DNA from: Alphaproteobacteria bacterium
Lineage (GTDB): Bacteria; Pseudomonadota; Alphaproteobacteria; UBA828
DNA: 64,000 bases
Reading direction: 5' to 3'
Assembly (NCBI GenBank): GCA_963422645.2
Contig: CAXXVO010000008.1
Location: forward strand, 1-64,000
In this document: positions 2,304 through 37,968 of the stretch, in pieces
Position numbering within the stretch: position 1 is the first letter of the stretch
Layout of the letters: each line of letters opens with the position of its first letter
Made by a program: the position numbers and the translations under genes
Notes under the pieces: generated by a model
Database searches by the model: none
What the model was told of the DNA's origin: nothing
Seen by the model: the letters and a program-made list of their open reading frames with translations, nothing else

Positions 2304-2384
2304 CCCGCCACCCCACGCGGCGCTGGCTACGCGCCGGCATTCAGGCTATCCCGGGAGAGGCGCACCCACATCATGGAGGAGAGC

Positions 2385-2789: not shown

Positions 2790-2841
2790 GCCGGCGTGGT
2801 CTTCTCGACCCTGCGGTGCCCGGATCGCCGGCTCGGAGGGC

Positions 2842-2917
2842 TGGTAGCGGGGGAGGGACTCGAACCCCCGACCCATGGATTATGATTCCACTGCTCTACC
2901 GACTGAGCTACCCCGCC
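2842..2917 (-). tRNA. tRNA-Met (CAT), elongator type
   Basis: GGCGGGGTAGCTCAGTCGGTAGAGC...ATCATAA...GGTTCGAGTCC...CTACCA, a 76-nt cloverleaf with encoded CCA. Confidence 0.96.
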
Positions 2918-2937
2918 CCAGGAGCCGGAAGCGCACC

Positions 2938-2967
2938 GCTATACGCGGCGCCCTCGCCGCCTGTCAA
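2938..2967 (-). promoter_or_regulatory. Putative sigma70 promoter of tRNA-Met
   Basis: TTGACA-18 nt-TATAGC just upstream of the tRNA. Confidence 0.6.
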
Positions 2968-2994
2968 GCGCACCGCAGCAAGCGGCGGCTTCGC

Positions 2995-3090
2995 TTAGCG
3001 GAACGGCGGCGCGTAGAGGATGCCGCCGTCGCGATAGAGGGCGCTGAGGCCGCGCGGCAGGCCCAGCGGGCTGCCTGCGCCCAAATTCTC
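2995..3090 (-). pseudogene. aapJ: 3' end of AapJ/BztA-like amino acid-binding protein, cut off by IS66
   Basis: ENLGAGSPLGLPRGLSALYRDGGILYAPPFR* is the typical AapJ C-terminus and continues the 4980-5920 frame across the TSD. Confidence 0.88.
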
Positions 3091-12954: not shown

Positions 12955-13619
12955 GAACCCTCGTCGGCCTCGACGGCCATGATCGCGGCCAGCACCGCCA
13001 GGCGTTCGCCCGCCGGCATGGCCTCGTAGCGCCGGCCCCAGTTGGCCGCCTTGCGCTTGATGCACTGGCGCTCGGTGAAGTTCCGGCCGGCGAAGCTCGC
13101 CCAGTGCACCCGGTCAGGCACGAAGTTGAACCACACGACCTCGGTCCGCACCTGGGCCTGGGTCGTCACCTGCAGCGCCAGCCGGCGCCAGCCCGCCAGC
13201 AGCTCGTCATAGAGCGCAGACGGGTGGCCCGAGACCATCACCTGGCAGGGCAGACCCTTGAGCAGTTCGAGGAGCGCGACGTGGTCGGCCTCCTCGTACT
13301 CGAAGCGGTAGCGCTGCGACGAACGCCGGGTCGCGTGCAGATAGGGCGGATCGCTGTAGACCAGCTCCGGGCCCAGAAACGGGAACGAGGCCAGGAAGGA
13401 ATGGGCGCAGCCGGGCACCAACTCCACCGGGTAGTCGCAGCCAAAGGCCTCAAGCGCCCGCTCGTCGCGGTCGATCCCGATCGAGCGCATGGCCGCAGGC
13501 TTGCGCTTCATCAGCGCCCCGCCCCCAAGATGGCTCTCGATATAGACAGAGTGCCGCGGCATCAGCGCAATCAGCGCCTGGCTCAGACCGGTCGTCGCCT
13601 TCGACCCGAAATACCCCAC
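12951..13619 (-). CDS. Short Dam/D12-like N6-adenine DNA methyltransferase
   Basis: YFGSK N-terminus, YIESHLGGG SAM-binding motif and DPPY catalytic motif. Confidence 0.85.
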   Translation of the reverse strand: MGYFGSKATTGLSQALIALMPRHSVYIESHLGGGALMKRKPAAMRSIGIDRDERALEAFGCDYPVELVPGCAHSFLASFPFLGPELVYSDPPYLHATRRSSQRYRFEYEEADHVALLELLKGLPCQVMVSGHPSALYDELLAGWRRLALQVTTQAQVRTEVVWFNFVPDRVHWASFAGRNFTERQCIKRKAANWGRRYEAMPAGERLAVLAAIMAVEADEGS

Positions 13620-13850: not shown

Positions 13851-15542
13851 TTATTGGGCGCCTGCGACGGTGCCTACCCGGCGAAGGTCGGCGGTGGCGG
13901 TCTCGTCAAGCATGCCGTCACCCGAGACGGCGACGGCATAGTCCCGCCGGGCGGACTCGGGTGAGACCAGGTCGTTCTGCACGTCGGCAGCCACGTCCTC
14001 GGCGGCGCGATGGCGGGGGTCGCCGTAGCCGGCCCCGCCGGGGAGCACCAGCTTGAGACGCTTGCCCGGCGGGATGGTCTGTTGCCCCTTGCCGCGCAGC
14101 GTGGTGCCGTCGTCGAGCGCGACCGTGCCCGCTGCGCCATCGAGCCCGCCGCCCCGGCCTCGTGCGGGGTTGTCGATGCGCTCGAATTGCGCGAGCACGC
14201 TGAAGGGCGCACCGTCCGCGCCACCGATCTCCATCACCTGGCCGAGCCCGCCGCGCAGCAAGCCGGCGCCGCCGGTATCCTCCGCAAGCTCCTTCCGCCA
14301 GATCACGATGGGCGCGACCGTCTCGGTGGCCTCCGCCGGTATGGTGCGCACACCGCTTGGGAAGGCCGTCGCAGACAGGCCGTCCTTGGTCGGCCGCGCG
14401 CCGGCGCCCCCTGAGTTGAAGAGCGCCACCTCGAACTCCGGCGGCTCGAACGCCGCGTTGCGCCGGGCCTCGCTGTCGATCGCCGTCGCACCGCCGCGCA
14501 GCTGCACGATCCAGAGCGAGGCCGCGCCCTCCGCCGGCACCCGCTCGGGGATCGCCTGATGCAGGCAGCCGAACACCAGATCGGGCAGCATATGGCCGAT
14601 GACGTGGCGGGCCGCGACCGGCCACGGCCTGGGCGCGTTGAGGATCGAGCCCGCCGGCGCCGAGACGGTGAGCGGCGCGAGCGAGCCCGCGTTGTTCGGT
14701 ATGTCTTTCGCCACGATGCACTTGAGGCCGAAGCTCGTGTAAGCGGTGGTGTAGTTGAGCACCACGTTGATGCCGTGATTGCTGGCGGGCGAGGTGCCGG
14801 TGAAATCGACGTGGATTCCGTCGCCCGAGATGGTCATGGCGGCGACCAGCGTGATCGGCTCGTCGTAGCCGTCCATGGTGAGCGTGTTGCGGTAGGTGGC
14901 CTTGGGCAGCTCGGCGATGGCTGCCAGGGTCGCCGCGCGCGAGCGTTCGATGATCTCCCCGCCCAGCGCATCGAGGTCGGTCAGTCCGAATTCCTCCATC
15001 ATGGAGAGCAACCGGTCGGCGCCCGCCCGGTTGCAGGCGATGAGCGAGTGAACGTCGCCTTCGAGCTGGAGCGGCTCGCGCACATTCCAGCGCACCATCT
15101 CCAGCAGATCCTCGTTGATCCGGCCCTCGCGGCAGAGCGGCATGATCGGGATGTAGAGGCCTTCCTCGAACACCGATCGCGCATCCGGCCCGAAGCCGCG
15201 CCCGCCGATGTCGACCACGTGCGCGGTGCAGGCGAAGGAGCCGATCACCTGGCCTTCACGGAACACCGGGGTCACCACCGTGAGGTCGTGCAGGTGACCG
15301 CAGGTGAGCCATGGGTCGTTGGTGATGTAGACGTCGCCCTCACGCATGACCTCGTTGGGGTAGCGGTCGAGAAAATGCTGCACGGCGATGGCCATGGAGT
15401 TCACGTGGCCAGGCGTGCCGGTGACCGCTTGGGCCAGCATCCGGCCCTTGGTGTCGAAGACGCCGGCGGAGAGGTCGCCCGCCTCGCGCACGGTGGTGCT
15501 GAAGGCGGTGCGCAGCAGCGTCTGCGCCTGCTCTTCGACCAC
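13851..15542 (-). pseudogene. Hydantoinase B/oxoprolinase subunit, 5'-truncated
   Basis: Begins abruptly at VEEQAQTLLRTAFS; TNDPW..GHLHD and HVVDIGG motifs. Upstream DNA is transposon sequence. Confidence 0.85.
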
Positions 15543-16449
15543 CCTCGGCTACCGCAGAGACCCGACCGACCGGGCGCGCTTCAAGCGCGGGGGCTCGGTC
15601 ATCAGCATCAACGGCGAGAAGTTCTTCGATCACCTGCGCGGCACGGGAGGGGGTGGCGCCATCGACCTCGTCATCCATGCGACGGGATGCCGCTTCCCGG
15701 AAGCCCTCCGCTTCCTCGGAAGCCATGAGGGGCGGAGGGAGATCACCACCATCCCAGCCGCCCCGCGACGCCTGCGGCTGCCAAGGCCCAGTCCCCGCGC
15801 CTGGCCCAGGGTCCGGGACGCCCTCATCCGCCAACGCGCTATCGGCACCGACGTGCTCGAAGCCTGCCACGGCCGAGGCCTCCTCTACGCCGATGACAGG
15901 ATCAACGCCGTCTTCATCTGCCGAAACGCCAGCGGGCACACGACCGGCGCCGAGATCCTCGGCACCGCGCCGCAGCCCGGAACAAAACGCTTCAGGGGCA
16001 TGGCCCCGGGATCGCGCAAGGCGCGTGGCGGCTTCTGGCTCCACTGCGACCGAAACCAGCCCGCCCTCGTCATCCTCACCGAGAGCGCCGTCGACGCCAT
16101 CTCTGCACGAAGCCTGCGCGTCGAGGGGACGCGCGAGAACGGCGCCGTCGTCGCCTCAACCGCCGGCATCGCCAGCTCGGTCCCGCCCTGGATCAAGGAG
16201 TGGAAGCCACGTCGCATCGTCTGTGCCTACGACGCAGACAGCGCCGGCGACACTGCCGCCGAGCATCTCGTGCTCAACGATCCAAGGGTGAAAAGGTTGC
16301 GCCCACGACACGCCAAGGACTGGAACGAGATGCTCCTGCGGTCTCGATGAAAGCCAGGCCACTCACCGCTCTCGCAGATCAACCAAGCGCCGCATCACGA
16401 ACATCAAATAATCCGAAAACCGCACCATCAAATGCTGGGCGCACGCTCA
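15542..16449 (+). mobile_element. Right-end fragment (908 bp) of the 31295-36483 transposon, with 5'-truncated Toprim gene
   Basis: Matches 35576-36483 (identical ORF translations). Identity stops exactly at ...GCGCACGCTCA. Confidence 0.93.
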
Positions 16450-16450
16450 C

Positions 16451-16684
16451 CTGGTCGCCGAGCGCTCGGGCACCGACGGCCACGCCGACCGCTTCTGGGC
16501 GCTCGCGCTCGCCTGCCTCTCGGCCTCGCAGGCATCCGGCCCCTTCCAGGCCTGGATCGGCGAGGGCCGCCACGCCGTCCATGACATGCCGGGCTCCCCC
16601 CTCGACGGCGATACCGGCTACCGCATCGACACCGAACTCGGCGTCGTCCATTCCCCCCTCTCCGCCCTGAACGGCTGGCGATAG
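16451..16684 (+). pseudogene. C-terminal remnant of a Mu-like terminase large subunit (gp28)
   Basis: LVAERSGTDGHADRFWALALA motif directly upstream of the portal gene. Confidence 0.75.
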
Positions 16685-16687
16685 CCC

Positions 16688-18175
16688 ATGGCCGCGCCCG
16701 CCCCCGCACGTCCCGGGACCGCCGAGATCGCAGGCCCGCAGGCCGGCATCGGCGGCATCGGCGAGCTCGTCCTCCCCTGGCTCGACAGCGACCCGGCGCT
16801 CGGCGCCGACCCCCGCCAGTGGCAGGCCGATCCCACCGGGATCGCGGCCGCACAGGCCGCGCTCCGCGACCCCCACGCCCGCGCCGTCCTCGACCAGCGC
16901 CTCGACGCCGTCACGGCCGCCCCCCTCGATATCGAACCCGGCGGCCCGATGCGCCGCGACAGACAGGCCGCCGGGGACCTCGCGGACCAGTTCGGCGGGA
17001 TCGAGATCGACCGCATCTCCCGCGAACTCCTCCACGCCGCCTGGTACGGATACAGCATCGCCGAGTGCATCTGGGAGATCGACGGCGCCCGCGTCCGCCT
17101 CGCCGATCTCAAGGTCCGCGACCCCGCCCGCTTCCGCTGGCGCAGGGACGGAACCCCGCTGCTCGTTACCCGCGAGAACCCGCGCGGCGCCGAACTCCCG
17201 CCCGCCAAGTTCGTCGTGCTGACCCAGCCCCGCAGCCACGGCGGCCAGCCCCACGGCCCCGGCGCCGCACAGTGGTGCCTCTGGCCGGTCTGGCTCAAGC
17301 GCCAGGCTGTGCGCATGTGGGCGGTCGCGCTCGAGAAGTTCGGCAGCCCCACCGCCATCGGCACCGTCCGCCGCGACGCGCCGGCGGCCGAGATCGAGAC
17401 GATGCTCCAGGCCCAGCGCGCCATGGCCGGAGGCGCCGGCCTCGTCATCCCCGAAGGCCAGGAACTCAGGCTGCTCGACTCGGCCCGCCGCGCCGGCGGC
17501 GACTACGGCGCCTTCGTCGCAGCCCTCGACGGCATGATCGCGGACGCCGTCCTCGGCCAGCGCGCAACCTCCGAGATCGGACCCTGGCGCGGCACCGCCG
17601 AAGTCCAGGCCAAGGTGCTGGAGCGCCTCGTCGCCGCCGACGCCCGACGGCTCTCCGCCGCGCTGCGCAACTCCGTCGCCGCCTGGCTCACCCAATGGAA
17701 CTTCCCCGGCGCAGACGTGCCCGAACTCGCCCGCAACACCGCGCCCCCCGAGGACCTCGTGGCCCGCGCCAGGCGCGAGGAGACCGTCGCCCGAACCTCG
17801 GGCCTCCGCCCCACCCCCGCCCATGTCGAGCAGGTCTACGGCGGAGAATGGGAGAAAGCCCCCGACGCGCCCCCGACGCCAGGCGGCGATCCCCGCCCCG
17901 CGCGCCTCGCCGAGCCGGCGCAGCAGGACGACGACGCCATCGACGACGCCGTGGACGCGATCGCCGCAGACTGGCAGCCCCTCATGGAGCCGGTCGTCGC
18001 CCCCGTGCTCGGCGCCGCAGAGAACGCCGACAGCCTCGGCCGCTTCCGTGCCGCGCTCGACGAGCGCCAGCTCTGGGAGGACATGAACGCAGACCGCATC
18101 GCCCGCCGCCTCCGCCGCACCGCATTCTCCGCCCGCCTCTCCGGCGACGCAGGCCTCGACGAGGGCGAGGGCTGA
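16688..18175 (+). CDS. Mu-like portal protein (gp29/DUF935)
   Basis: AWYGYSIAECIW, LEKFGSP and AVLGQ motifs; terminase-portal-gp30 gene order. Confidence 0.85.
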   Translation: MAAPAPARPGTAEIAGPQAGIGGIGELVLPWLDSDPALGADPRQWQADPTGIAAAQAALRDPHARAVLDQRLDAVTAAPLDIEPGGPMRRDRQAAGDLADQFGGIEIDRISRELLHAAWYGYSIAECIWEIDGARVRLADLKVRDPARFRWRRDGTPLLVTRENPRGAELPPAKFVVLTQPRSHGGQPHGPGAAQWCLWPVWLKRQAVRMWAVALEKFGSPTAIGTVRRDAPAAEIETMLQAQRAMAGGAGLVIPEGQELRLLDSARRAGGDYGAFVAALDGMIADAVLGQRATSEIGPWRGTAEVQAKVLERLVAADARRLSAALRNSVAAWLTQWNFPGADVPELARNTAPPEDLVARARREETVARTSGLRPTPAHVEQVYGGEWEKAPDAPPTPGGDPRPARLAEPAQQDDDAIDDAVDAIAADWQPLMEPVVAPVLGAAENADSLGRFRAALDERQLWEDMNADRIARRLRRTAFSARLSGDAGLDEGEG

Positions 18176-19368
18176 TGCCCGCGCCCGAGATCCTGGACGT
18201 ACCCCCCGCCGAGGCCGTCGAGCACTTCCGCGCCAGGGGCTTCCACGTCGGCTTCGACTGGCGCGACACCGATGCCGAGCAGCACCTGGTCTCCTTCACC
18301 GCCGCCAAGACCGCGAAGCTCGACATCCTCCAGGACCTGCGCACCGCCGCCGACAAGGCCATCGCGGACGGCACAACCTTCGAGACCTTCCGCGCCGAGC
18401 TCGAACCCACCCTGGTCCGCAAGGGATGGTGGGGCAGGCAGCCCATGACCGATCCCGTCACCGGCAAGACGCGCATCGTCCAGCTCGGCTCGGCCCACCG
18501 CCTGCGCATTATCTTCGATACCAACATCCGCATGGCCTACGCCCGCGGCCGATGGGAGCGCATCGAGCGCCTCAGGGAGGCCATGCCCTGGCTCCGCTAC
18601 GTCGCCGTCCAGGACGCCCGCACCAGGCCCGACCACCTCGCATGGCACGGCACCATCCTTCCGGTCGATCACCCCTTCTGGCAGACGCACTACCCGCCCA
18701 ACGGATGGAAGTGCCGCTGCATCGTCCAGCAGTTCGGAGACGACGACCTGGAGCGCTACGGATACAAGGTGTCCGAGGGTCCGCCGCCCGGCTCCGGGCG
18801 CACCAGGCCCTGGAAGAACCGCCGCACAGGCCGCGTCCACCAGGTCCCCCCCGGCATCGATCCCGGCTTCCAGCACAACGTCGGCCGCGCCCGGCCCGGG
18901 CGCGACAGCGCAAACCGCCTGATCGAGAAGATCGACGACGCGCCCCCCGACCTCGCACGCGCCGCCATAGGCCAACCCTGGCGCGGGCAGCTCTTCCGCC
19001 GCCACCTCGAAGGCCGGTCCGACGCCGACTGGCCCGCGGCCGTGCTCTCCGCCCCGGTGCGCGGCGCCATCGGCGCACGCTCCCGAACCGTCCGCCTCTC
19101 CACAGAAACCGCCGCAAAGCAGGCCAGGAGACACCCCGATCTCGAACCCGCAGACTACGCCCGCGTCCAGCGCATCCTCGATCAAGGGGAGATGTTCGCC
19201 GGCTACGAACGTCAGGCCGTCGGCTTCCTCGAAGAGAACGGCCGCCTGTGGCGCGCCGTCGTCAAGGCCACCGTGGACGGCTCCGAGACTTATCTCGTGA
19301 CCCTTCACAAGGCGCAGCCCCGGGACCGCGACGTGGCGCAGCGGCGTTGGGTCAGGATCGAGCTTTGA
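18175..19368 (+). CDS. Mu gp30/MuF head morphogenesis protein with C-terminal PBECR-like domain
   Basis: RLRIIFDTN, RTRPDH, FWQTHYPPNGWKCRC and GIDPGF motifs, plus a ~110-aa extension (KQARRHPDL..DY..RAVVKAT..ETYLVTLHK). Confidence 0.85.
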   Translation: MPAPEILDVPPAEAVEHFRARGFHVGFDWRDTDAEQHLVSFTAAKTAKLDILQDLRTAADKAIADGTTFETFRAELEPTLVRKGWWGRQPMTDPVTGKTRIVQLGSAHRLRIIFDTNIRMAYARGRWERIERLREAMPWLRYVAVQDARTRPDHLAWHGTILPVDHPFWQTHYPPNGWKCRCIVQQFGDDDLERYGYKVSEGPPPGSGRTRPWKNRRTGRVHQVPPGIDPGFQHNVGRARPGRDSANRLIEKIDDAPPDLARAAIGQPWRGQLFRRHLEGRSDADWPAAVLSAPVRGAIGARSRTVRLSTETAAKQARRHPDLEPADYARVQRILDQGEMFAGYERQAVGFLEENGRLWRAVVKATVDGSETYLVTLHKAQPRDRDVAQRRWVRIEL

Positions 19369-19377
19369 AGGGAAAGA

Positions 19378-19446
19378 TGGCGCCGGGCGGGCCGCAACCC
19401 CCGCGCTCGCCCGAAGGCATGAGAGTCATGCGTGCTTCCAGCGCCA
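19378..19446 (-). ncRNA. Candidate tRNA-like small RNA convergent with the MuF-nuclease gene
   Basis: 9-bp closing stem UGGCGCUGG/CCGGCGCCA stacked on a 5-bp GCGGG/CCCGC arm, with internal hairpins. Promoter-like TTGAGG-17-TAGGGT lies 5 nt upstream. Confidence 0.5.
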
Positions 19447-19451
19447 CGCCG

Positions 19452-19480
19452 ACCCTACGCGCCGCCGCACGCCACCTCAA
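19452..19480 (-). promoter_or_regulatory. Putative sigma70 promoter for the small RNA
   Basis: TTGAGG (19480-19475), 17-nt spacer, TAGGGT (19457-19452). Confidence 0.5.
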
Positions 19481-19655
19481 GCCGATTCAGCGCCCCGGCG
19501 CGGGCCGCCGCCAGCCTCGCGGGACGGGCGCCTCGCCCCGGATTTTCCAGCCGAATCCGATACCCCGAAACCGACCCGATTTGCCGCCGTCGCAAGACCC
19601 CTGAAACGCCCCGAAAATCGCCGTTTCCAGCCGATTCACGGTCGCTTCCAGACCG

Positions 19656-19799
19656 GATTCGCAAAGACTTTCGTCCGCCCGCCGCGACGCACCCGCCGTT
19701 GACGACGCCCCGCATCCCCTTGAGATTCCGCCACCTTCCGCCCGATTCCGCCTGATTCCACCCCTTGACCCGATTCACAACGACTTTCGTCCGTCTACA
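19656..19799 (+). repeat. Mu-like right end: two 22-bp direct repeats and terminal CA
   Basis: GATTCGCAAAGACTTTCGTCCG (19656-19677) vs GATTCACAACGACTTTCGTCCG (19772-19793), 20/22 identical. ...TCTACA ends at the hydantoinase A junction. Confidence 0.7.
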
Positions 19800-21411
19800 C
19801 TCCTCGCGCGACGATAGCGGCGGCCTCGTCGCGCATTTCCTCTAGCACCCGGTTGGCGGTGTCGGGGTTGAAAGCGCTCACGACCTGATAGGCGCTGCGC
19901 ACCACCTCGTAGGCGACCGGCGCACGAAGGAAGCCCACCGCCGAGCCGACGGCTGCGGCAGTTGGGATCAGGATGCGGTCCATGTCGAGCTTCTCGGCGA
20001 GGCGGGCGGCGTGCAGGGGCGCTGCGCCGCCGAACGCGATCATTGTGCGCTCGCCGAGCGTGGCTCCGATCTCGATGGCGTGGACGCGCGCGGCGCTCGC
20101 CATGTTCTCCCCCACCATCTCGCCGACCCCAAGGGCGGCCACCTGCGGTTCCAGATCCAGCGGCGAGCCGATCGCTGACGCGAGCGTATTGACGGCGGCC
20201 TGCTCGTCGAGCGCGATGCGCCCGCCCGAGAAATCGCCAGAGTCGATGCGCCCCATCACCAGATCGGCGTCGGTCACCGTGGGCTCCGCACCGCCCTGGC
20301 CGTAGCAGGCCGGTCCCGGCTGGGCGCCGGCGCTTTCCGGCCCCACCGCGATGCGGCCCAACCGGTCCACGGCGGCGATGGAGCCGCCGCCTGCGCCGAT
20401 CTCCACCATCTCGATCACCGGGATGCGGAGCGGCAGGCCGCTACCCTTGAGAAAGCGATGGGCCCGGGCGACCTCGAAGGCCCGCGTCGTTTGAGGCTGG
20501 GCGTTGTCGATCAGGCAGATCTTGGCTGTGGTGCCGCCCATGTCGAAGGAGAGAACGCGATCGAGGCCACATTGGCGGGCGACGTGGCTGGCGAAGACGG
20601 CGCCGCCCACCGGGCCGGATTCCACAAGGCGGATGGGAAAGCGGATTGCCGTCCCGATGTCGGCGACGCCGCCGCCCGAGAGCATGACGAAGAGCGGGCA
20701 GCGGAAACCCGCTTCGCGCAGGCCAGCTTCCAGATTGCGCAGATAGCGCGCCATGACCGGCTGGACGTAGGCGTTGGCGCAGGCAGTGGAGAAGCGCTCG
20801 TACTCGCGCATCTCCGGTGCCACCTCTGACGACAGAGTGATTGCGAGGTCAGGCAGCGCCTTGCGCAGGATGTCGTGTACCCGTCGCTCGTGCGCCGGAT
20901 TGACGTAGCTGTGCAGGAGGCCGACCGCGGCGCTCTCGATGCCCTCGGCGGCGAGCCGGGTGGCCGTGGTTGCGACCGCCGACTCGTCGAGCGGCAGGAT
21001 CGGATCGCCAGAGGCGTTGAGCCGCTCGGGGATGGGGAAGCGCCATTGCCGGGGCACCAGCGGCACCGGCTTCTCCATGTCGATGTCGTACTGCTCGAAG
21101 CGGCTCTCCGTGCCCATCTCGATGGAATCGCGGAATCCCTCCGTGGTGATCAGCGCGGTGCGTGCGCCCTTGCGCTCGATCAGTGCGTTGGTCGCGAGCG
21201 TGGTGCCGTGGATGACCAGCGCCACCTCGTGCGGTGCGACGCCGCATGCCTCCATCGCCTGCGCCAGCCCCTGGCGCACACCCTCCTCGGGCGCGTCGGG
21301 CGTCGTCAGCACCTTCGCCGTGAACCGCTCAGTTCCTCGCTCGAGCACGATATCGGTGAAGGTGCCGCCGATATCGACGCCGATCCGAACCTCAACGCCC
21401 GTTCGCGTCAT
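19795..21411 (-). pseudogene. Hydantoinase A/oxoprolinase subunit, 3'-truncated by the Mu-like end
   Basis: GVDIGGTFTD, HGTTLATN, DMGGTT and GPESAGA motifs. Stops 1-2 codons into the phage end and lacks the usual C-terminal domain. Confidence 0.85.
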
Positions 21412-31294: not shown

Positions 31295-31444
31295 TGAGCG
31301 CGCGCGGTCTTTCAGCGGGGATCGGGGCCTGATCCGCTCGGATTTGTTGAGGTTTTGGGGCGGGTGCCCCTCGGCGAACTTGCAAGAAGTTCGCCGGGGG
31401 GCTTTGTCTCGTGGTGACGGTCACAATCGCCAGAGACGGCCCCA

Positions 31445-32062
31445 ATGTCGCACAACATTTTCCGCCACTCCATGCTTTGCAACGCCCTGGTCTGGGCCTG
31501 GCTGCGCGAGGTCGATGAGGCCGAGGCGGCGCGCTGCCGCGAGGCGGGCTGCCGACACTGCCCCGGCAAGCTGCACAGCGCGACGTATCCGCGCAAGCCG
31601 TACGGTCTGGCAGCCGAGTTGAGGGAAGAGGGCACGCGGCGGTTCAGCTTCTGCTGCGCGGATTGCCGCCTGCGAGCGACCCCACCATCGGTACGATTCT
31701 TCGGGCGCCGCTTTTATCTGGGCGCCCTGTTCGTTCTGTTGAGTGCACTGGTTCTGAGAGGCGGGGTGCGGTTGCAGACGATCAAGCGGAAGTGGGGGGT
31801 CTCGGTCGCCACACTGCGCCGCTGGCGGAAGTGGTGGCTGGAGGCGTTCCCGGCGACGGAGCCCTGGGGAGCGAAGCGTGGCGAACTGGTGATGCCACCC
31901 GAGGAGGTGCCGCTGCTCTTCGTGCTGCGGCAGATGCGGGGCGGACGCTTCGGTGAGCGTCTGTTCCTGAGCCTGATCTGGTTCAAGCCGTGGACGGGCT
32001 ATTGCGGGCTCGGCGATGGCTCGGCGCCGCCCGCAGAAAGTGTTCCTGTCACGCCCGGATAG
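31445..32062 (+). CDS. Zn-ribbon/HTH accessory protein of the transposon
   Basis: CRHC...CCADC, TPPSVRF and HTH-like GVSVATLRRWRKWW motifs. Confidence 0.7.
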   Translation: MSHNIFRHSMLCNALVWAWLREVDEAEAARCREAGCRHCPGKLHSATYPRKPYGLAAELREEGTRRFSFCCADCRLRATPPSVRFFGRRFYLGALFVLLSALVLRGGVRLQTIKRKWGVSVATLRRWRKWWLEAFPATEPWGAKRGELVMPPEEVPLLFVLRQMRGGRFGERLFLSLIWFKPWTGYCGLGDGSAPPAESVPVTPG

Positions 32063-32111
32063 GGCGTTCTACATGGGCATCTCTCCGATGCGGCGAGGGA
32101 GGGATGCCGGA

Positions 32112-33587
32112 ATGGACAAGGACGACGCGGGCGCCAGGCGCGAGAAGTGGGCCCGGCTGCGCTTTGCGGTGGTGGGGCCGCTTCTGGCTTCACCGCCGCC
32201 TGCAGGCCAGCTGGGGGCCGAGTTCGAGCGTCTGTCGCAGCGCGACTGGGAGCACCCGTCGGGCAAGGGGCCGGTGCGCTTTGCGGCCTCGACGATCGAG
32301 CGCTGGTACTACCGGGCGCGGGCAGAGGAGCAGGACCCGGTCAAGGCGCTGCGCCGGAAGCCTCGGACCGACGTCGGCCGCGAGCGGTCCATGTCGGCGG
32401 GGCTGATCGCGGCGCTGCGCGAGCAGTACCGGGTCCATCCCTCGTGGGCGGCGCAGCTCCACTACGAGACCCTCAAGGCTCATGTTGCGACCCATCCCGA
32501 GCTCGGCCCGATGCCGTCCTACGCGACGCTGACGCGGGCGATGCGCAATCGCGGCCTGGTGCGCGAGCGCCCCAGGAAGTGGCACGAGGGTGAGGACAAG
32601 CCGGCGGTCGAAGCCCGCGAGGTCCTTAGCTACGAGGTGTCTCGCAGTCACGCGCTGTGGCACGGGGACTTCCACCACGGCAAGCGCCGCGTGCTGACGG
32701 CGTCGGGCGAATGGCAGACGCCCATCCTGCTCGGCTTCCTCGACGACCACTCCAGGCTTGGCTGCCACCTGCAGTGGTACCTGGAGGAGACCGCCGAGGT
32801 CTTCGTCCACGGGCTCTGTCAGGCCTTCATGAAGAGGGACTTGCCCAGGTCCCTGCTGACCGACAACGGCGGGCCGATGACGGCGGGCGAGGTCGAGGAG
32901 GGCTTGCACCGCCTCGGCATCGTGGGGGCCACGACACTCGCTTACAGCCCCCATCAAAATGGAAAAATCGAGTCGTTCTGGGGCACGGTCGAGGGCCGCC
33001 TGATGGCTCAGCTCGAAGGCGTCGACGCGCTCACCCTGAAGATGCTCAACGACGCCACCATAGCCTGGCTGGAGCAGGACTACCATCGGCGGGTGCACCG
33101 CGAGCTCGGCATGACGCCGCATGAACGCCTCGCCGGGAGCGTCAAGGCATCGAGGCCCTGCCCCGCCTCGGACGAGCTCAAGGCGGCCTTCCGCATCGCC
33201 AGGAAGCGCACGCTCAGGCGCTCGGACGGCACCGTCTCGGTCGAGGGCATCCGCTACCAGGTGCCACAGCCGTGGCGCCACCTGAGGACGCTCTGGGTCC
33301 GCTATGCGCGCTGGGACCTCAGCGGCGTCGATCTGGTGGAAGGCCGAAGCGGCGAGCGGCTGTGCACGCTGTACCCCCTCGACAAGCGCGGCAACGCCGA
33401 TGGCGTCCGCCGTCCTGCGAGACCCGGCAGCGACCATGGCGGCGCCAGCGCGGGCGTCGGCGAACTTCCGCCGCTGCTCAAGGGCGTGCTCGACGCCCAG
33501 GCCGCAACAGGCCTGCCGCCGGCCTGGGTACCCCATAACAAGACGCCCGGTCCGGGCGAGGACGACGATCAGGGAGATCCGTCATGA
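32112..33587 (+). CDS. DDE (rve-type) transposase with N-terminal HTH
   Basis: LWHGDFHH, FLDDHSR, LTDNGG and NGKIESFW motifs; Mu-like C-terminal RRSDGTVSVEGIRYQVP. Confidence 0.9.
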   Translation: MDKDDAGARREKWARLRFAVVGPLLASPPPAGQLGAEFERLSQRDWEHPSGKGPVRFAASTIERWYYRARAEEQDPVKALRRKPRTDVGRERSMSAGLIAALREQYRVHPSWAAQLHYETLKAHVATHPELGPMPSYATLTRAMRNRGLVRERPRKWHEGEDKPAVEAREVLSYEVSRSHALWHGDFHHGKRRVLTASGEWQTPILLGFLDDHSRLGCHLQWYLEETAEVFVHGLCQAFMKRDLPRSLLTDNGGPMTAGEVEEGLHRLGIVGATTLAYSPHQNGKIESFWGTVEGRLMAQLEGVDALTLKMLNDATIAWLEQDYHRRVHRELGMTPHERLAGSVKASRPCPASDELKAAFRIARKRTLRRSDGTVSVEGIRYQVPQPWRHLRTLWVRYARWDLSGVDLVEGRSGERLCTLYPLDKRGNADGVRRPARPGSDHGGASAGVGELPPLLKGVLDAQAATGLPPAWVPHNKTPGPGEDDDQGDPS

Positions 33588-34417
33588 ACCGCGAGCTGCT
33601 CACCTTCTACGGGCTCAAATGGAACCCCTTCGCCACCGACCTTCCGGTCGACAGCCTCATGGTGAGCCCCGCCGTCGACAGCTTCTGCCTCAGAATCGAG
33701 CATCATCTTGTGCGCCAGGGCGGCTTCGCGTTGATCGCCGGCGAGCCCGGCACCGGAAAGAGCGTGGCGTTGCGCGTGCTCGCCGACCGCCTCGGCCGCT
33801 CGGACGGGCTCAGGGTCTGTGCCATCACCCACCCCTCTTCCAGGCTGTCCGACTTCTACCGCGAGATCGGCGGGATGTTCGGCGTCGACCTGATGTACAA
33901 CAACCGCTGGGCCAGCTTCAAAAACCTGCGCGAGCGATGGCTCACCCATGTCGACGACACCCGCATGCGGCCCGTGGTGCTCATCGACGAGGCCCAGGAG
34001 CTGCTGCCCTCGGTGATCTCCGAGATCCGCCTGCTGGCGTCCACCGACTTCGACTCGCGCGCCATCCTCTCGGTCGTCTTCGCCGGCGACAGCCGCCTGA
34101 TCGACAGGCTCCGCCAGCCCGACTTGCAGCCCATCGCCTCGCGCCTGCGCCAGCGCCTGGTCATGACCCAGGCAGACGCCGGCGACCTCGCGGCCCTGCT
34201 CGACCATCTGGTCGAGCAGGCCGGCAATCCGGGCCTCATGAGCGCAGAGCTCAAGGACACCCTGGTCACCCACGCCGGCGGCAACCCCAGGGCGCTTACC
34301 GTCATGGGCGACATGCTGCTCGCCGCCGGCGCCGAGAAGAACCGCGAGGTTCTCGACGAGAAGCTCTTCATGGAGATCCTGGGCGAGCCCGCCAAGCCGA
34401 AGAGGGCACGGCGGTGA
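33584..34417 (+). CDS. ExeA-like AAA+ ATPase (transposition helper)
   Basis: YGLKWNPF, Walker A GEPGTGKS, Walker B LIDEAQ and GNPR motifs. ATGA overlap with the transposase. Confidence 0.88.
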   Translation: MNRELLTFYGLKWNPFATDLPVDSLMVSPAVDSFCLRIEHHLVRQGGFALIAGEPGTGKSVALRVLADRLGRSDGLRVCAITHPSSRLSDFYREIGGMFGVDLMYNNRWASFKNLRERWLTHVDDTRMRPVVLIDEAQELLPSVISEIRLLASTDFDSRAILSVVFAGDSRLIDRLRQPDLQPIASRLRQRLVMTQADAGDLAALLDHLVEQAGNPGLMSAELKDTLVTHAGGNPRALTVMGDMLLAAGAEKNREVLDEKLFMEILGEPAKPKRARR

Positions 34418-35412
34418 AGGGCTTCCCGACACGGGCGCCGATGCAGCTCGAGGATCGCCCCCGGGCGCAACAGTGGATGGTGGACACGCTGTGGGCCGAG
34501 CAGGCCGTGGGCATCGTCGGCGGCGAGCCCAAGTGCGGCAAATCCCTGCTCGCGCTCGATCTCGCCGTCGCCGTGGCCACCGGCGTCCCATGCCTGCGCC
34601 ACTACCGCCCCAGCGCAAGCGGCACCGTGCTGCTCTTCGCCGCCGAGGACGCCGGCCACAGGGTGCGCAAGCGTCTGCAGGGGATCGCCCGCGCCGCCGC
34701 CACCCCCTTCGACGAACTCGACATCGCCGTCATCGACGTGCCCACCCTGCGTCTCGACCGGCCCGGCGACCGTCAACGCCTGCAGCAGACCGTGGAGCGC
34801 ATCGAACCGCGCCTCCTGATCCTCGATCCCCTGGTCCGCCTGCACAGCGTCGACGAGAACGCCGTCGCAGAGATCGCCCCCATCCTCGGCTTCCTGCGCG
34901 AACTGCAGCGCCGCTTCGAAACCGCCGTCCTCCTCGTCCACCACGCCCGCAAGAGCGGCGGCACCCGGCCGGGGCAGGCCCTGCGCGGGAGCAGCGAGCT
35001 GCACGCTTGGGGTGACTCAAATCTGTACCTGCGCCGGCGCGACAAGAAGATCGTCATGACGGTCGAGCAGCGCGACGCCCGGGGCCTCAACGACATCGAG
35101 CTGGAACTCGTCGACGGCGGACATGGGCCGGCCTTCCGTCTGCACCAGGACGCGGCAGATGAAGACAGGCACGAGCCCGCCACCGTCGAGCAGCGCGTCT
35201 TCAAGGCGATCGAGCAGGCCGAAAAGCCGCTCTCGAAAGCCCAGATCCGCTCACGCGCCGCTGCCCGCAACGCCACCGTCGTTGCCGCCATCGAGAGCCT
35301 CACCAGGGAGGGGCGCATCGAACGGGCGCCCAGGGGTGGCTATCGCCTCGCAGCCGCCGAGGCGCACCGGGAGCCGCAATCCCCTGCCGCCATCAACGGA
35401 AGTGCGGGATGA
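34414..35412 (+). CDS. RepA-like (AAA_25, RecA/SF4) helicase-type ATPase with C-terminal wHTH
   Basis: GEPKCGKS, LILDPL, LVHHARK and LRGSS motifs. GTGA overlap with the previous gene. Confidence 0.85.
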   Translation: MKGFPTRAPMQLEDRPRAQQWMVDTLWAEQAVGIVGGEPKCGKSLLALDLAVAVATGVPCLRHYRPSASGTVLLFAAEDAGHRVRKRLQGIARAAATPFDELDIAVIDVPTLRLDRPGDRQRLQQTVERIEPRLLILDPLVRLHSVDENAVAEIAPILGFLRELQRRFETAVLLVHHARKSGGTRPGQALRGSSELHAWGDSNLYLRRRDKKIVMTVEQRDARGLNDIELELVDGGHGPAFRLHQDAADEDRHEPATVEQRVFKAIEQAEKPLSKAQIRSRAAARNATVVAAIESLTREGRIERAPRGGYRLAAAEAHREPQSPAAINGSAG

Positions 35413-35473
35413 GGCGTTCCCGTTCCCGTTCCCGGAACTCTTAAGCGTTGAAGGGTACAGGAACGGGAACGCC
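35413..35473. repeat. 21-bp imperfect inverted repeat built of CGTTCC units (origin-like)
   Basis: GGCGTTCCCGTTCCCGTTCCC - 19-nt AT-richer spacer - GGGTACAGGAACGGGAACGCC; 19/21 positions pair. Confidence 0.85.
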
Positions 35474-35514
35474 GTCAGCCTCCCTTCCAAGCAGACCTTC
35501 GCCGGGACCCGGCA

Positions 35515-36384
35515 ATGAGCGGCGGCGATCCCCTGGCCACCTGCCGCAACATCCCCCTCGACCGGGTCGCCGCCGCCCTCGGCTACCGCAGAGACCCGAC
35601 CGACCGGGCGCGCTTCAAGCGCGGGGGCTCGGTCATCAGCATCAACGGCGAGAAGTTCTTCGATCACCTGCGCGGCACGGGAGGGGGTGGCGCCATCGAC
35701 CTCGTCATCCATGCGACGGGATGCCGCTTCCCGGAAGCCCTCCGCTTCCTCGGAAGCCATGAGGGGCGGAGGGAGATCACCACCATCCCAGCCGCCCCGC
35801 GACGCCTGCGGCTGCCAAGGCCCAGTCCCCGCGCCTGGCCCAGGGTCCGGGACGCCCTCATCCGCCAACGCGCTATCGGCACCGACGTGCTCGAAGCCTG
35901 CCACGGCCGAGGCCTCCTCTACGCCGATGACAGGATCAACGCCGTCTTCATCTGCCGAAACGCCAGCGGGCACACGACCGGCGCCGAGATCCTCGGCACC
36001 GCGCCGCAGCCCGGAACAAAACGCTTCAGGGGCATGGCCCCGGGATCGCGCAAGGCGCGTGGCGGCTTCTGGCTCCACTGCGACCGAAACCAGCCCGCCC
36101 TCGTCATCCTCACCGAGAGCGCCGTCGACGCCATCTCTGCACGAAGCCTGCGCGTCGAGGGGACGCGCGAGAACGGCGCCGTCGTCGCCTCAACCGCCGG
36201 CATCGCCAGCTCGGTCCCGCCCTGGATCAAGGAGTGGAAGCCACGTCGCATCGTCTGTGCCTACGACGCAGACAGCGCCGGCGACACTGCCGCCGAGCAT
36301 CTCGTGCTCAACGATCCAAGGGTGAAAAGGTTGCGCCCACGACACGCCAAGGACTGGAACGAGATGCTCCTGCGGTCTCGATGA
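35515..36384 (+). CDS. Toprim-domain primase-like protein (DUF3991-like)
   Basis: GGGAIDLV, TESAVDA, YDADSAG (DxD) and KDWNE motifs. Confidence 0.85.
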   Translation: MSGGDPLATCRNIPLDRVAAALGYRRDPTDRARFKRGGSVISINGEKFFDHLRGTGGGGAIDLVIHATGCRFPEALRFLGSHEGRREITTIPAAPRRLRLPRPSPRAWPRVRDALIRQRAIGTDVLEACHGRGLLYADDRINAVFICRNASGHTTGAEILGTAPQPGTKRFRGMAPGSRKARGGFWLHCDRNQPALVILTESAVDAISARSLRVEGTRENGAVVASTAGIASSVPPWIKEWKPRRIVCAYDADSAGDTAAEHLVLNDPRVKRLRPRHAKDWNEMLLRSR

Positions 36385-36483
36385 AAGCCAGGCCACTCAC
36401 CGCTCTCGCAGATCAACCAAGCGCCGCATCACGAACATCAAATAATCCGAAAACCGCACCATCAAATGCTGGGCGCACGCTCA

Positions 36484-36843
36484 CTTTCTCGTCGACGGCT
36501 TGTACCGGTCGAAGTGGGCCTCCTTCCACTCGCCCTCGATGAATTCCCGCAACAGCGGAACAGCGCGTTTCGGCGCGGTCTCTCTGTCGGGCTCAGTAAG
36601 GGACTGCCGCGCGAGGCATTCCTTTCGGGCCTCGGCGATCCCCATTGTCGAGACGGGACCGAGAGAGACGCGCCGTGATACGCCTCCGACATGGCGCAAC
36701 ATGACAAAGGTCCGTGCTCCGGTTGACCGTACCCGGACCCCGAGACCCGGGCTGCGGCTGTCCCAGACGGTATATTCCCGCTCGCGGGGACGCAGGCGGG
36801 CGATGGCGGCATCGGTGAGGCGCATGCGTTTCCTGCCCGCCAT
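36484..36843 (-). pseudogene. Second tyrosine integrase; only the arm-binding N-terminus remains
   Basis: RLTDAAI..VWDSRSPGLGVRV..G.RTF motif; cut at the transposon right end. Confidence 0.8.
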
Positions 36844-36846
36844 GGC

Positions 36847-37968
36847 TCAGCGCTCCAGAATGGCGCCGACGGTCTCGGCGGCGTCCAGCACCATGGCGTC
36901 GGCGGCATGGGTGTATTTGAGCGTGGTTTTCGCACTGCGGTGCCCGAGCAGCCGGCCGATGGCGAGGACGGTCTCGCCCTGCCGCAATGCGATGCTGGCA
37001 TGGGTATGGCGAAGATCGTGAAGACGGACGTCGTTGAGGTCTGCCTCGGCGCGGATCGTAAACCAGAAAGGGTCCAGCCAACTTCTACCCGACGGCCCTC
37101 CGGTCCGGGGCGCCAGGAAGACCCACCGGCCGGTTCGCTCGATCCCGTCGAGGATCTTCCGTGCTGGGTCGGATAGCCAGACGGTTCGGGGACCCGTCTT
37201 GCTGTCGCGCAGGAAGAGACGGCCTTCCCGGTAGTCAGACCATCGCAGCGTCAGGATCTCGCTCTTGCGGCACCCCGTCAGGAGGAGAAGACGGACGGCC
37301 GCGACTTGAAGCGGCTTTCGTTCGGCATGAGCAGACAGTGCTGCGGACAGCCGGCGGATCTCGTCGTCGGACAGGAAGCACTCCCTCCCTTTCCGGCGAT
37401 AGCGCCGGATGCCCCGGCAGGGGTTGGAGCCCTCGGGACGAAGGCCCATCGTCTCCGCCTCTCTCATGATGACGGAGAGCACCGGCATGGAACGATCGGC
37501 CGCGACCGGGATAGCACGGAGCGAGGCGAACCAGTTGCGGACCTCCCGGCTGTCGACGTCGGCAACCGGGCGTCCCGAGAAGCACGGCAGGATCTGATTG
37601 CGCAGGTAGCCGCGGTTCACTTCGAGCGTTCGCGCCTTCCAGACCCGCTGGTAGCGCTCGAACACGGTCTCGGCGACGGCTTCGAAGAGGGTCTCGCCGG
37701 AATGGGGAGGCGTATCCTCCCCCCGCCGGATCGCGGCCTGCATTTCGTCTGCGCGACGCCGTGCCTCCCCGACGCTCATGGAGTTAGCATCCCCGACGAT
37801 CTTCCAGACGCGCTCGCCGCGATGCTGGCAGTGGATGAAGAAGCATTTGCGGCCCGAGGGCGAGACGCGGACGCCGAAGCCGGTGAGCTTGCTGTCGCGG
37901 GTGTCGTATGCGGACTTGCGGGGCCGGAGCGCTGTGACGCGGGCGGCGGTAAGAGTGATTCTGGCCAT
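36847..37968 (-). CDS. Tyrosine recombinase/integrase with arm-binding domain
   Basis: TGCRKSEI, HDLRHT and LGH...TLKY catalytic residues. Confidence 0.92.
   Translation of the reverse strand: MARITLTAARVTALRPRKSAYDTRDSKLTGFGVRVSPSGRKCFFIHCQHRGERVWKIVGDANSMSVGEARRRADEMQAAIRRGEDTPPHSGETLFEAVAETVFERYQRVWKARTLEVNRGYLRNQILPCFSGRPVADVDSREVRNWFASLRAIPVAADRSMPVLSVIMREAETMGLRPEGSNPCRGIRRYRRKGRECFLSDDEIRRLSAALSAHAERKPLQVAAVRLLLLTGCRKSEILTLRWSDYREGRLFLRDSKTGPRTVWLSDPARKILDGIERTGRWVFLAPRTGGPSGRSWLDPFWFTIRAEADLNDVRLHDLRHTHASIALRQGETVLAIGRLLGHRSAKTTLKYTHAADAMVLDAAETVGAILER

Follow-up and report, generated by a model that had tools for sequence, protein, structure and literature searches.

Helicase and primase genes on a Tn6049-family transposon of an alphaproteobacterium: a possible element-borne primosome

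What could genes for a helicase and a primase be doing inside a transposon? The question is raised by a 64,000-nucleotide stretch of an alphaproteobacterial contig (CAXXVO010000008.1; hereafter the window), where the initial annotation proposed a DDE transposon that replicates itself. The evidence gives good support to placing the element, with its five genes, in the Tn6049 family: it has a g1-g2-g3 core, TG...CA ends and target duplications of 4-5 bp (Table 1). That the family has here been extended by a facultative primosome, starting the copying at the transposition intermediate by a mechanism that we infer, is a reading to which we give about even chances. If so, the element may carry along part of its own copying machinery.

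Table 1. Features of the element and of its second, partial copy in the window (positions refer to the window)
Feature	Position	Strand	Remarks
Left terminal inverted repeat	31295..31307	+	TGAGCGCGCGCGG; first base identical at 24/24 left ends in genome
Terminator-like stem-loop with T-rich tail, within left end 5' of g1	31366..31402	+	pattern scan: 16 pairs, 11 G-C
g1, 205-aa Cys-rich (CxxC...CCxxC) and HTH protein	31445..32062	+	weak HTH_23 match
g2, 491-aa rve-type DDE transposase	32112..33587	+	Pfam rve, rve_3, HTH_32; D186, D251, E287
g3, 277-aa MuB-like AAA+ ATPase ('gspA/ExeA-like' gene of Tn6049)	33584..34417	+	AAA_22, E 6e-19
g4, 332-aa RepA-like (AAA_25, RecA-fold) helicase-type ATPase, C-terminal winged-helix domain	34414..35412	+	AAA_25, E 2.5e-36
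Palindrome, arms of three tandem hexamers (GTTCCC / GGGAAC), ~19-nt loop	35413..35473	.	directly 3' of g4
g5, 289-aa compact DnaG-type primase: Cys-less N-terminal domain, DUF3991, Toprim	35515..36384	+	DUF3991, Toprim_2
Right terminal inverted repeat	36471..36483	-	...GGGCGCACGCTCA; last base identical at 27/27 right ends in genome
Truncated second copy	15539..16449	+	element positions 4279-5189: most of g5 and right end

The element and its Tn6049 core

Positions 31295-36483 form a discrete transposon of 5189 bp and, as annotated, its TGAGCG...CGCTCA ends enclose five genes on the same strand (+). The left end (TGAGCGCGCGCGG) and the reverse complement of the right end (TGAGCGTGCGCCC) match at 10 of their first 11 bases. 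In the bacterium's own genome, where this 5.2-kb element is present in about two dozen copies, BLAST finds 44 pieces of it. Eight copies are intact, four are full but interrupted by other insertion sequences, and 28 pieces are partial; identity is 99.4-100% in nearly all (89% in one piece of 520 nt), and the termini are the same throughout. These intact and full copies, with the same termini genome-wide, confirm that it is one mobile unit with which the helicase and primase genes move. Such co-movement had been deduced from the second copy in the window, which does end at the identical nucleotide in a different context, but is a fragment only (99.9% identical to the element across 911-912 nt), so that the whole-genome comparison is much the stronger proof for all five genes.

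Direct repeats are kept in five of the 12 full copies (5 bp in three, 4 bp in two), giving a target duplication of 4-5 bp where the repeats survive, and 5-bp duplications were read in all four related elements from other genomes. Their absence from the other seven full copies is explained by recombination between copies as well as by intramolecular replicative events. The window copy has no direct repeat, and is flanked by a truncated MFS gene on the left and a truncated integrase gene on the right.

The core itself is already known, as that of the named, little-studied transposon family Tn6049. Tn6049 of Cupriavidus metallidurans is a transposon of 3.5 kb (3517 bp), whose transposition module, according to its description, "could not be categorized". 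Homologues of g1-g2-g3 stand in the same order in the Tn6049 copies of pMOL30 and of P. aeruginosa plasmid pHS87a (41%, 50% and 50% identity; PMC4739549, PMC2864759), and their products are, as here, a small Cys-rich/HTH 'transposase', an rve transposase of ~480 aa and a 277-aa AAA ATPase ('gspA'). Short imperfect terminal repeats starting with TG, duplications of 4-5 bp and many copies per genome are likewise common to both (PMC4739549, PMC2864759). The termini differ, being TGTGC... in Tn6049 and TGAGCG... in the window element, and in Tn6049 the ATPase gene is followed by nothing but a 71-aa ORF and a simple hairpin; AAA_25 gene, hexamer palindrome and primase are all missing. What is new, therefore, is the addition to the Tn6049 core: a start/stop-coupled RepA-like helicase, a covarying palindrome and a lineage-specific primase of the DnaG fold.

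In an alignment of 26 g1 sequences, C36, C39, C70, C71, C74 and an RW..WW helix are invariant; the AF2 model (pLDDT 75) found no clear match in the PDB, the Atlas match is to DUF6431/HTH clusters, and g1 lies 5' of the transposase gene in 73 of 80 related loci. The D/D/E triad of g2 is invariant across the homologues aligned, and the enzyme resembles IS481/IS3-type transposases (NCBIfam IS481, 117 bits, under the cut-off of 224) as much as those of phages (PHROG 310 transposase, E 6e-35). The ATPase g3 scores under the cut-off of TIGR03015 'ExeA/EpsA-like' and matches PHROG 296 'DNA transposition protein'; hhalign aligns it with the B protein of phage Mu at a probability of 96.9% (E 1.4e-10) and with TniB at 54.6%.

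Like IS21 (IstA/IstB), Tn7 and Tn5053/Tn402 (TniA/B/Q), the element combines an rve-type transposase with an AAA+ helper, in stop/start-coupled genes. It differs in that its IS21 score in NCBIfam is 37 bits (cut-off 160), the TniB match is weak, that to TniA has E 0.004 (probability 8.5%), and no similarity between g1 and TniQ was found. We know of no member of these families with a helicase or a primase as a core gene. With phage Mu it shares a DDE transposase with a separate AAA+ ATPase, TG...CA ends and the 5-bp duplication; however, it has no phage genes, g2 lacks the Mu-transpos_C domain, and because hhalign does not relate g2 to MuA (E 0.24) the analogy to Mu lies in the ATPase alone.

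The helicase, its palindrome and the primase

The middle three genes have overlapping stop and start codons, as first noticed, the 4-nt overlaps being ATGA between g2 and g3, and GTGA between g3 and g4, with GTG as the start of the latter. The RepA-like character given to g4 from the beginning is borne out by its AAA_25 domain and by its sole match among PDB sequences, RSF1010 RepA (1g8y, E 1.9e-8). Walker A (G37, P39, K40, K43), D138, DEN 147-149 and RGS 191-193 are invariant in 25 sequences, the catalytic motifs remaining so down to 40% identity, none of the 35 homologous ORFs inspected is interrupted, and some homologues have GntR/MarR/IclR HTH matches in Pfam. The dN/dS of g4 (0.29-0.39) and of g5 (0.32-0.59), set against that of the transposase (0.25-0.33), indicates purifying selection on both genes comparable to that on the transposase.

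Had homologous elements mostly lacked both genes, the initial proposal would have been refuted; its helicase part stands, while its primase part is weakened. Among 52 testable loci the helicase gene was retained in 47 and, counted by isolates, in 36 of the 39 that could be tested, from ten phyla, whereas a g5-type primase occurs in 3 of 21 testable isolates. The primase moves with the element in this genome, as proposed, but its addition is confined to the window element's lineage.

Directly after g4, the palindrome would fold, as single-stranded DNA, at -23.9 kcal/mol (z = -5.4). Among 37 g4-bearing elements, 19 have a similar one with a score of at least 12 and 14 more have a weaker form; no hexamer palindrome was seen in the eight g4-lacking loci examined. 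Its arms covary, 86.2% of cells being paired against 77.2% in shuffles (none of 500 as high), and both sides change in 8 of 21 pairs. From these sequence patterns it is probably a cis-acting site paired with g4, though it might instead be an ordinary terminator or operator.

As for g5, the Foldseek search of its AF2 model (pLDDT 87) supports the DnaG-primase fold: 40 PDB matches have E <= 1e-3, and among the matches listed all are DnaG, T7 gp4, T4 or Twinkle primases. E201, D251 and G256-D257 are invariant, the Toprim residues are intact, and the nearest plasmid relatives (30-38% identity) stand under MobV relaxase annotations.

A self-contained RepA-type helicase, with its own primase and a structured DNA site alongside, resembles the arrangement in the plasmid RSF1010 (IncQ), where the helicase/primase module frees priming from the host and gives the plasmid a broad host range. 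The primase there is of the RepB' type rather than of the DnaG/Toprim fold, and the window module, which has neither a RepC initiator nor iterons of ~20 bp, lies within a transposon that shows no sign of free replication in depth or contigs.

It is also conceivable that g4 is here not a replicative helicase but a RecA-fold protein that regulates transposition or selects its targets, contacting the palindrome or the target DNA by way of the winged helix; the primase would then be a later passenger. Such a role would suit the strictness with which g4 is coupled to g2 and g3, the lack of a primase in most relatives, the C-terminal DNA-binding domain of g4 and the regulatory role that other AAA+/RecA-type ATPases have in Tn7-like elements and Mu (PMC11406308). 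We nevertheless think it unlikely: the best and only solved relative of g4 is a true hexameric helicase, the phage profiles that match it are primase/helicases, a MuB-like target ATPase is already there, and it is exactly g4 that the primase joined, apparently more than once or anciently.

Copy number and spread of relatives

Were the element to amplify as an excised form, as the initial annotation suggested, its depth should exceed its chromosomal copies and its ends should be found joined. Contig word depth over the element is 19-27x that of the flanks (run X1), matching the 19-29 chromosomal copies per position, with no excess; the Logan contigs of three runs contain no right-to-left end junction, although rare circles could escape such contigs, and no small assembly contig is made of the element. 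The same data make improbable an episomal phase in which an excised or copied-out circle replicates like a small plasmid (g4, by its winged helix, would be the initiator-helicase, the palindrome the origin and g5 the primase) and then re-inserts. It is true that both RepA-type helicases and the proteins closest to g5 come from plasmids, that an origin-like repeat palindrome lies between g4 and g5, and that IS3/IS481-like transposases are tied to circular intermediates, a copy-out mechanism being named for the IS3 family in bioRxiv 10.1101/2023.06.07.543989. On the other hand, a RepC-like initiator and long iterons are absent, and most relatives have the helicase without the primase.

Three-gene Tn6049, without a helicase too, has 12 copies in strain CH34 (PMC2864759), and four-gene relatives lacking the primase occupy at least nine places in each of two genomes (G005 and G009) and eight loci in a third (OZ224045.1). 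Neither gene is essential for spread, because these three- and four-gene relatives reach equal copy numbers. This spread, and the frequency of cargo on transposons, could suggest that helicase and primase are mere cargo without a role in movement, e.g., plasmid-derived, host-benefiting or interfering with replicons or phages. That they are cargo is decidedly doubtful given the fixed position, the translational coupling and the cognate palindrome, kept across 40-90% protein identity and ten phyla; in PADLOC, moreover, g4 has no defence match and g5 matches only the DnaG-like part of a DRT model.

The proposal of a satellite of Mu-like phages, whose replication module would amplify the element during infection for the phage to package, found no support and seems to us extremely improbable. 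Copies of a single multi-copy Mu-like fragment (portal, Mu F) lie immediately beside six of the 51 element ends. The second copy in the window has a Mu-like fragment at its right end and a truncated hydantoinase B gene at its left edge; the terminase gene first proposed for this site finds no backing in Pfam, where the ORF beside that copy has no match, and the neighbouring genes encode a Mu-type portal and Mu F. The adjoining fragments, however, may be no more than junk that a genome full of IS tolerates. The element lacks packaging, capsid-redirecting and integrase genes, its family is a plain multi-copy insertion in many genomes, and tblastn of g2 and g3 against 50,697 phage records gave no match.

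Possible role of the helicase and primase

In an element-borne primosome, the DDE transposase would join the 3' ends of the element to target DNA that the MuB-like ATPase holds, leaving a branched intermediate that would require replication. In phage Mu, replicative transposition forms a fork-like structure for which the PriA helicase is required, and the intermediate must pass to a primosome (PMC5778457). Mu uses the host's PriA/DnaB/DnaG, whereas the window element encodes a putative helicase and primase. Many members of the family, forming a large branch, have a RepA-like ATPase of the hexameric-helicase type that may be translated together with the transposase and its ATPase, and that would probably load itself on the branched intermediate, or on the hexamer-repeat palindrome after its gene; in the window lineage the DnaG-type g5 would then lay the primers. 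The two proteins could together make the copying step less reliant on the host restart primosome (PriA/DnaC-type loading), which might help the element in many hosts while transposition would be possible without it.

Casposons and Polintons are likewise transposons encoding part of their own replication apparatus, according to PMC4046053. They have a DNA polymerase with Cas1 or a retroviral-type integrase, whereas the window element lacks any polymerase domain and encodes just the helicase and the primase. At the other side of the element, the stem-loop in the left end may act as a block against transcription reading in from outside.

A five-gene mobile unit

ORF calling bears out the arrangement first noted for the 5189-bp element at 31295-36483, namely five co-oriented genes coding for a Cys-rich HTH protein (g1), an rve DDE transposase (g2), a MuB-like AAA+ ATPase (g3), a RepA-like helicase (g4) and a DnaG-type primase (g5), with four-base overlaps at g2/g3 and at g3/g4. 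The element starts with TGAGCGCGCGCGG... on the left and ends with ...GGGCGCACGCTCA on the right, 10 of its first 11 bases being repeated inversely at the other end. BLAST against the genome to which the window belongs (23 contigs, 5.9 Mb in all) finds 44 pieces of it, nearly all of them at 99.4-100% identity, with the exception of one 520-nt piece at 89%. There are eight intact copies (5189-5192 bp), four full copies that another IS interrupts (with overlaps of 4 nt at the break) and 28 partial pieces, and the terminal nucleotide is the same at 24 of 24 left ends and 27 of 27 right ends. The element, with all its five genes, is one mobile unit. The second copy that the initial annotation saw in the window does stop at that same nucleotide in a different context, but it is only a fragment (element positions 4279-5189).

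Direct repeats around the 12 full copies are of 5 bp in three cases and of 4 bp in two, and are absent in the other seven, the window copy included. Recombination or inversion partners of these seven were sought through reciprocal flanks, and the few 5-mer matches seen in the 24 x 27 combinations of ends agree roughly with chance expectation. On its left the window copy has a 3'-truncated MFS transporter gene; a fragment of an integrase gene, also truncated, borders it on the right. An intact tyrosine integrase gene stands beside this fragment, and no tRNA gene was found near the two integrase genes (36481-37968).

Features of the element and of its surroundings in the window
Feature	Position	Orientation or place	Remarks
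g1	31445-32062	co-oriented with g2-g5	205 aa; weak HTH_23 match; CxxC...CCxxC invariant
g2	32112-33587	co-oriented	491 aa; rve DDE protein; D186, D251, E287 invariant
g3	33584-34417	co-oriented	AAA_22 ATPase
g4	34414-35412	co-oriented	AAA_25, E 2.5e-36; RSF1010 RepA (1g8y), E 1.9e-8
Palindrome	35413-35473	directly 3' of g4	arms of three tandem hexamers each
g5	35515-36384	co-oriented	DUF3991 + Toprim_2
Integrase fragment	36481-36843	(-)	120 aa, N-terminal, truncated by the right end of the element
Intact tyrosine integrase gene	36847-37968	(-)
Hydantoinase B gene	13851-15542	(-)	5'-truncated
Element fragment	15539-16449	between hydantoinase B and A
Mu-like piece, 3.35 kb	16450-19799	between hydantoinase B and A	Portal_Mu (16688-18175) and Phage_Mu_F
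Hydantoinase A gene	19795-21411	(-)
IS66-family transposase gene	11413-13065		DDE_Tnp_IS66, E 3e-38
Inverted duplication	1-4915	contig start	arms 1-1828 and 3090-4915
tRNA-Met gene	2842-2917	enclosed by the inverted duplication

The Tn6049 family and its architectures

Assignment of the element to the family of Tn6049, the three-gene transposon of Cupriavidus metallidurans, is secure. The best matches of the transposase in plasmid records (50% identity) are on C. metallidurans megaplasmids and on P. aeruginosa pHS87a, and tblastn on the Tn6049 of pMOL30 and pHS87a gives 41% identity for g1 and 50% each for g2 and g3, in conserved order. In these plasmids Tn6049 measures 3517 bp and its three genes are co-oriented like g1-g2-g3. 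Passages of earlier accounts describe it as 3.5 kb long, with 12 copies in strain CH34 and the ATPase gene gspA on every copy (PMC2864759), as bounded by imperfect 12-bp inverted repeats and a 4-bp direct repeat (PMC4739549), and as having a transposition module that "could not be categorized" (PMC6210171). Both transposons have a small Cys-rich/HTH protein, an rve transposase of ~480 aa, an AAA ATPase of ~277 aa, short imperfect terminal inverted repeats and direct repeats of 4-5 bp (4 bp in Tn6049). They differ in their termini (TGAGCG here, TGTGC in Tn6049) and in content, since Tn6049 has ~3.5 kb and no further large gene; given its larger size, its two extra genes and its palindrome, we file the element as a variant of Tn6049 and not as Tn6049 itself.

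In hhalign comparisons the g3 family agrees better with phage Mu B (probability 96.9%, E 1.4e-10, 142 columns) than with TniB (probability 54.6%); g3 also matches PHROG 296 'DNA transposition protein' (E 6e-19), and the element resembles the Mu A/B module in encoding a MuB-like AAA+ ATPase. The transposase has no Mu-transposase C-terminal Pfam domain, does not match MuA (hhalign E 0.24), is weakly similar to TniA (E 0.0039, probability 8.5%) and remained without a match when 50,697 phage records were searched by tblastn; its match to the PHROG 310 phage transposase profile (E 6e-35) points to a possible distant link to Mu-type transposases. IS481 membership was rejected, as g2 reaches 117 bits against model NF033577 (cut-off 224) and five genes in 5.2 kb stand against the single ORF of a ~1-kb IS. 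For g1, hhalign detected no link to one Tn402 TniQ template sequence (E 0.17), and Foldseek with VIA-align returned no convincing fold, the best being a TrpR-like HTH at Z 4.4. Rfam gave nothing on the whole element, and PADLOC only partial matches, of g3 to mad8 and of g5 to the DnaG-like part of a DRT model.

Abundant as it is, the family is named only through Tn6049. Unnamed homologues of g2 number 6955 at E <= 1e-3 among the 8000 scored, and metagenomes hold thousands of unnamed g2 and g4 homologues. A scan of species-representative genomes confirmed at least 472 loci, of which the best 80 represent 65 isolates from ten phyla. Comparison of copies distinguishes three architectures: g1-g3 in 3441 bp (a Chromatiaceae MAG), g1-g4 in 4355-4384 bp (two alphaproteobacterial MAGs, one with 8 loci) and g1-g5, found elsewhere in 5161 bp (another MAG, with a primase 47% identical), all four compared relatives showing a 5-bp duplication as read from their flanks. 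The initial annotation had raised the case of relatives mostly lacking both helicase and primase, and this describes the primase and not the helicase: g4 is present in 47 of 52 loci (36 of 39 isolates) holding at least 1100 nt past g3, and g5 in 4 of 32 (3 of 21 isolates) holding at least 1100 nt past g4, shares drawn from the best 80 of the 472 loci, which are the most query-like and give no population estimate. Four- and five-gene forms are mixed in the fully supported clade of 12 to which a 66-row transposase tree assigns the window, and another supported clade, of 15, has only three-gene forms or untestable contigs. Within the window's genus, one genome has at least nine full five-gene copies among the matches listed (87% identity), and two others have at least nine places each where the match ends at element position ~3990-4060, before the primase gene; one such locus has g1-g4 and no g5 across 1.4 kb downstream.

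Small ORFs stand at g4's position in Tn6049 (L093:6303-6518; 71 aa, acidic) and in loci L072, L073, L063, L066 and L069, and these three-gene small ORFs have no similarity to g4. In the four-gene loci L013 (9320-9574), L020, L037 and L099, a conserved non-coding stretch of ~200 nt lies between palindrome and right end in the primase's place, and Rfam found no match in this 3' part of a four-gene relative. In locus L100 (genome G009), both g3 and g4 give a match broken into two pieces in the single copy examined, suggesting frameshifts in an element that is still present at many copies and is possibly mobilised in trans. Variants are also mosaics: between the window and locus L097, dS is 0.16 for g4 and 0.48 for g3, with g2, g4 and g5 86-91% identical and g1 and g3 only 66-68%, and the comparison of the window with L022 and L098 reverses the pattern (against L098, g3 91%, g4 74%). 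Such strongly unequal values indicate recombination between co-resident variants.

Helicase, primase and palindrome

The only solved structure that g4 matches in sequence is the RepA helicase of RSF1010. Its Walker A, Walker B, DEN and RGS motifs are invariant in 25 sequences down to 40% identity, a winged-helix domain lies at its C-terminal end, and the reading frame is intact in all 35 homologues examined. By its motifs g4 is a protein of the RepA/DnaB-like hexameric-helicase type, with hexamer formation and unwinding predicted; a regulatory g4 that does not unwind DNA is a rival reading. The AlphaFold model of g5 (pLDDT 87) retrieves with Foldseek only DnaG, T7 gp4, T4 and Twinkle primase domains among the hits listed at E <= 1e-3 (down to 9.8e-8). 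Like DnaG-type primases, g5 has the RNA-polymerase domain fold, the Toprim Glu and the DxD, the latter two invariant (E201, D251); unlike them, it is without the Cys4/CHC2 zinc-binding domain for template recognition, as its N-terminal domain keeps the strand pattern and has lost the zinc ligands (no conserved Cys/His set in the alignment). Its closest plasmid relatives (30-38% identity) stand under MobV relaxase annotations. Values of dN/dS are 0.29-0.39 for g4 and 0.32-0.59 for g5, compared to 0.25-0.33 for the transposase. That helicase and primase are pure cargo is a further rival reading.

The palindrome after g4 is built of the hexamers GTTCCC / GGGAAC around a loop of ~19 nt and would fold, as single-stranded DNA, at -23.9 kcal/mol (z = -5.4). 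Its design is shared by related elements and its hexamers are lineage-specific (GTTCCC, CTTCCC, ATTTCC, GTTACC), a hairpin scan of 37 g4-bearing elements scoring at least 12 in 19, weaker in 14 and unclear in 4. None of the 8 loci examined that lack g4 has the hexamer palindrome; in most of them a small ORF stands instead, and Tn6049 has a simple hairpin in addition. In an alignment of the 19 palindromes, which are related and whose structure is read from the same sequences, 86.2% of cells pair, compared to 77.2% in shuffled alignments (none of 500 as high) and 34-55% with the partner slid, and both sides have changed in 8 of 21 pairs. Within these bounds the alignment shows a maintained dyad symmetry, which would serve as a binding site in double-stranded form or else act as a hairpin.

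An episomal phase, the excised amplification initially envisaged, should be weighed against contig depth. In sequencing run X1, word depth on contigs rises from 40-57 in the flanks to ~1081 within the element, and the resulting ratio of 19-27 matches the 19-29 copies assembled per element position (mean 23). No joint of right to left end was reported in the contigs of three runs, and no assembly contig is made of the element alone. Depth and joints therefore fit chromosomal copies only, on a reading of assembled contigs, from which rare circles could escape. An IncQ-type plasmid replicon, which replicates autonomously with an initiator (RepC) and iterons, was likewise rejected, since none of the five proteins has an initiator domain, depth is chromosomal and no circle junction appears; the palindrome is the element's sole origin-like feature. 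Unlike casposons and Polintons, the element has no DNA polymerase domain in any of its five proteins.

To our knowledge, the way in which replicative or copy-out transposons hand their branched intermediates over to the replisome is known in detail only for phage Mu. The DDE reaction would leave here, too, a branched intermediate in need of replication. In Mu, replication of such an intermediate is described as requiring the host's PriA-directed primosome (PMC5778457). A self-loading helicase of the RepA type, translated together with the transposition proteins and having a DNA site of its own, could supply the primosome from within the element, and in some lineages the element's primase would be part of it. 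This element-borne primosome is the most economical mechanism: what we observe are intact, conserved and coupled genes, and the mechanism beyond this we infer. The module is facultative, as elements with three or four genes have spread just as well, and its retention across phyla suggests a benefit in hosts whose own factors suit the element badly. It is possible, though we hold it rather doubtful, that this widespread branch of the Tn6049 family comprises the first known bacterial DDE transposons with their own replication-initiation module, in which a self-loading RepA-type helicase recognises the internal six-hexamer palindrome and in some lineages recruits a dedicated DnaG-type primase, the element then initiating its own replicative copying with no need of the host's restart primosome. 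If true, such a module would explain the spread across at least ten phyla. The family itself is already known; its helicase-, primase- and palindrome-bearing relatives are apparently undescribed, as no description was found in a literature search that stopped short of the original Tn6049 description and of supplements, where larger relatives may have been mentioned earlier. The variants form a natural series (three genes; helicase and palindrome added; primase added), every stage of which reaches ~10-25 copies per genome, and comparing or swapping them makes the contribution of the element-borne helicase and primase directly testable.

Surroundings in a genome of IS expansion

The genome of the window is in massive, general IS expansion. 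A repeat of 2.55 kb (e.g., contig C9:177616-180167) has ~70 near-identical matches genome-wide, and several further repeat termini occur at 48-123 copies, many of them truncating copies of the 5.2-kb element. Where a partial copy of the element breaks off, it mostly adjoins the terminus of another repeat (13 to ~120 copies); the partial copies are therefore ordinary IS damage and no signature of the element, and their interpretation as abortive replication products was rejected. Genes visibly broken by the element and other IS in the window are the MFS transporter, the integrase and the hydantoinase operon, and an IS66-family transposase gene lies in the window as well.

The Mu-like piece inside the hydantoinase operon belongs to a multi-copy fragment whose copies (84-98% identity) share one right boundary (C9:185565-189888, C8:85063-89404 and others). 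A life as phage satellite, as initially suggested, has on its side only that 6 of 51 element ends directly adjoin copies of this fragment, at varying positions and in both orientations; this adjacency may as well reflect target preference, tolerated junk DNA or shared rearrangements. At the contig start, the arms of the inverted duplication match perfectly, in three pieces of 100% complementarity; two IS copies in opposite orientation, or a fold-back artefact of assembly at the contig end, could account for them.
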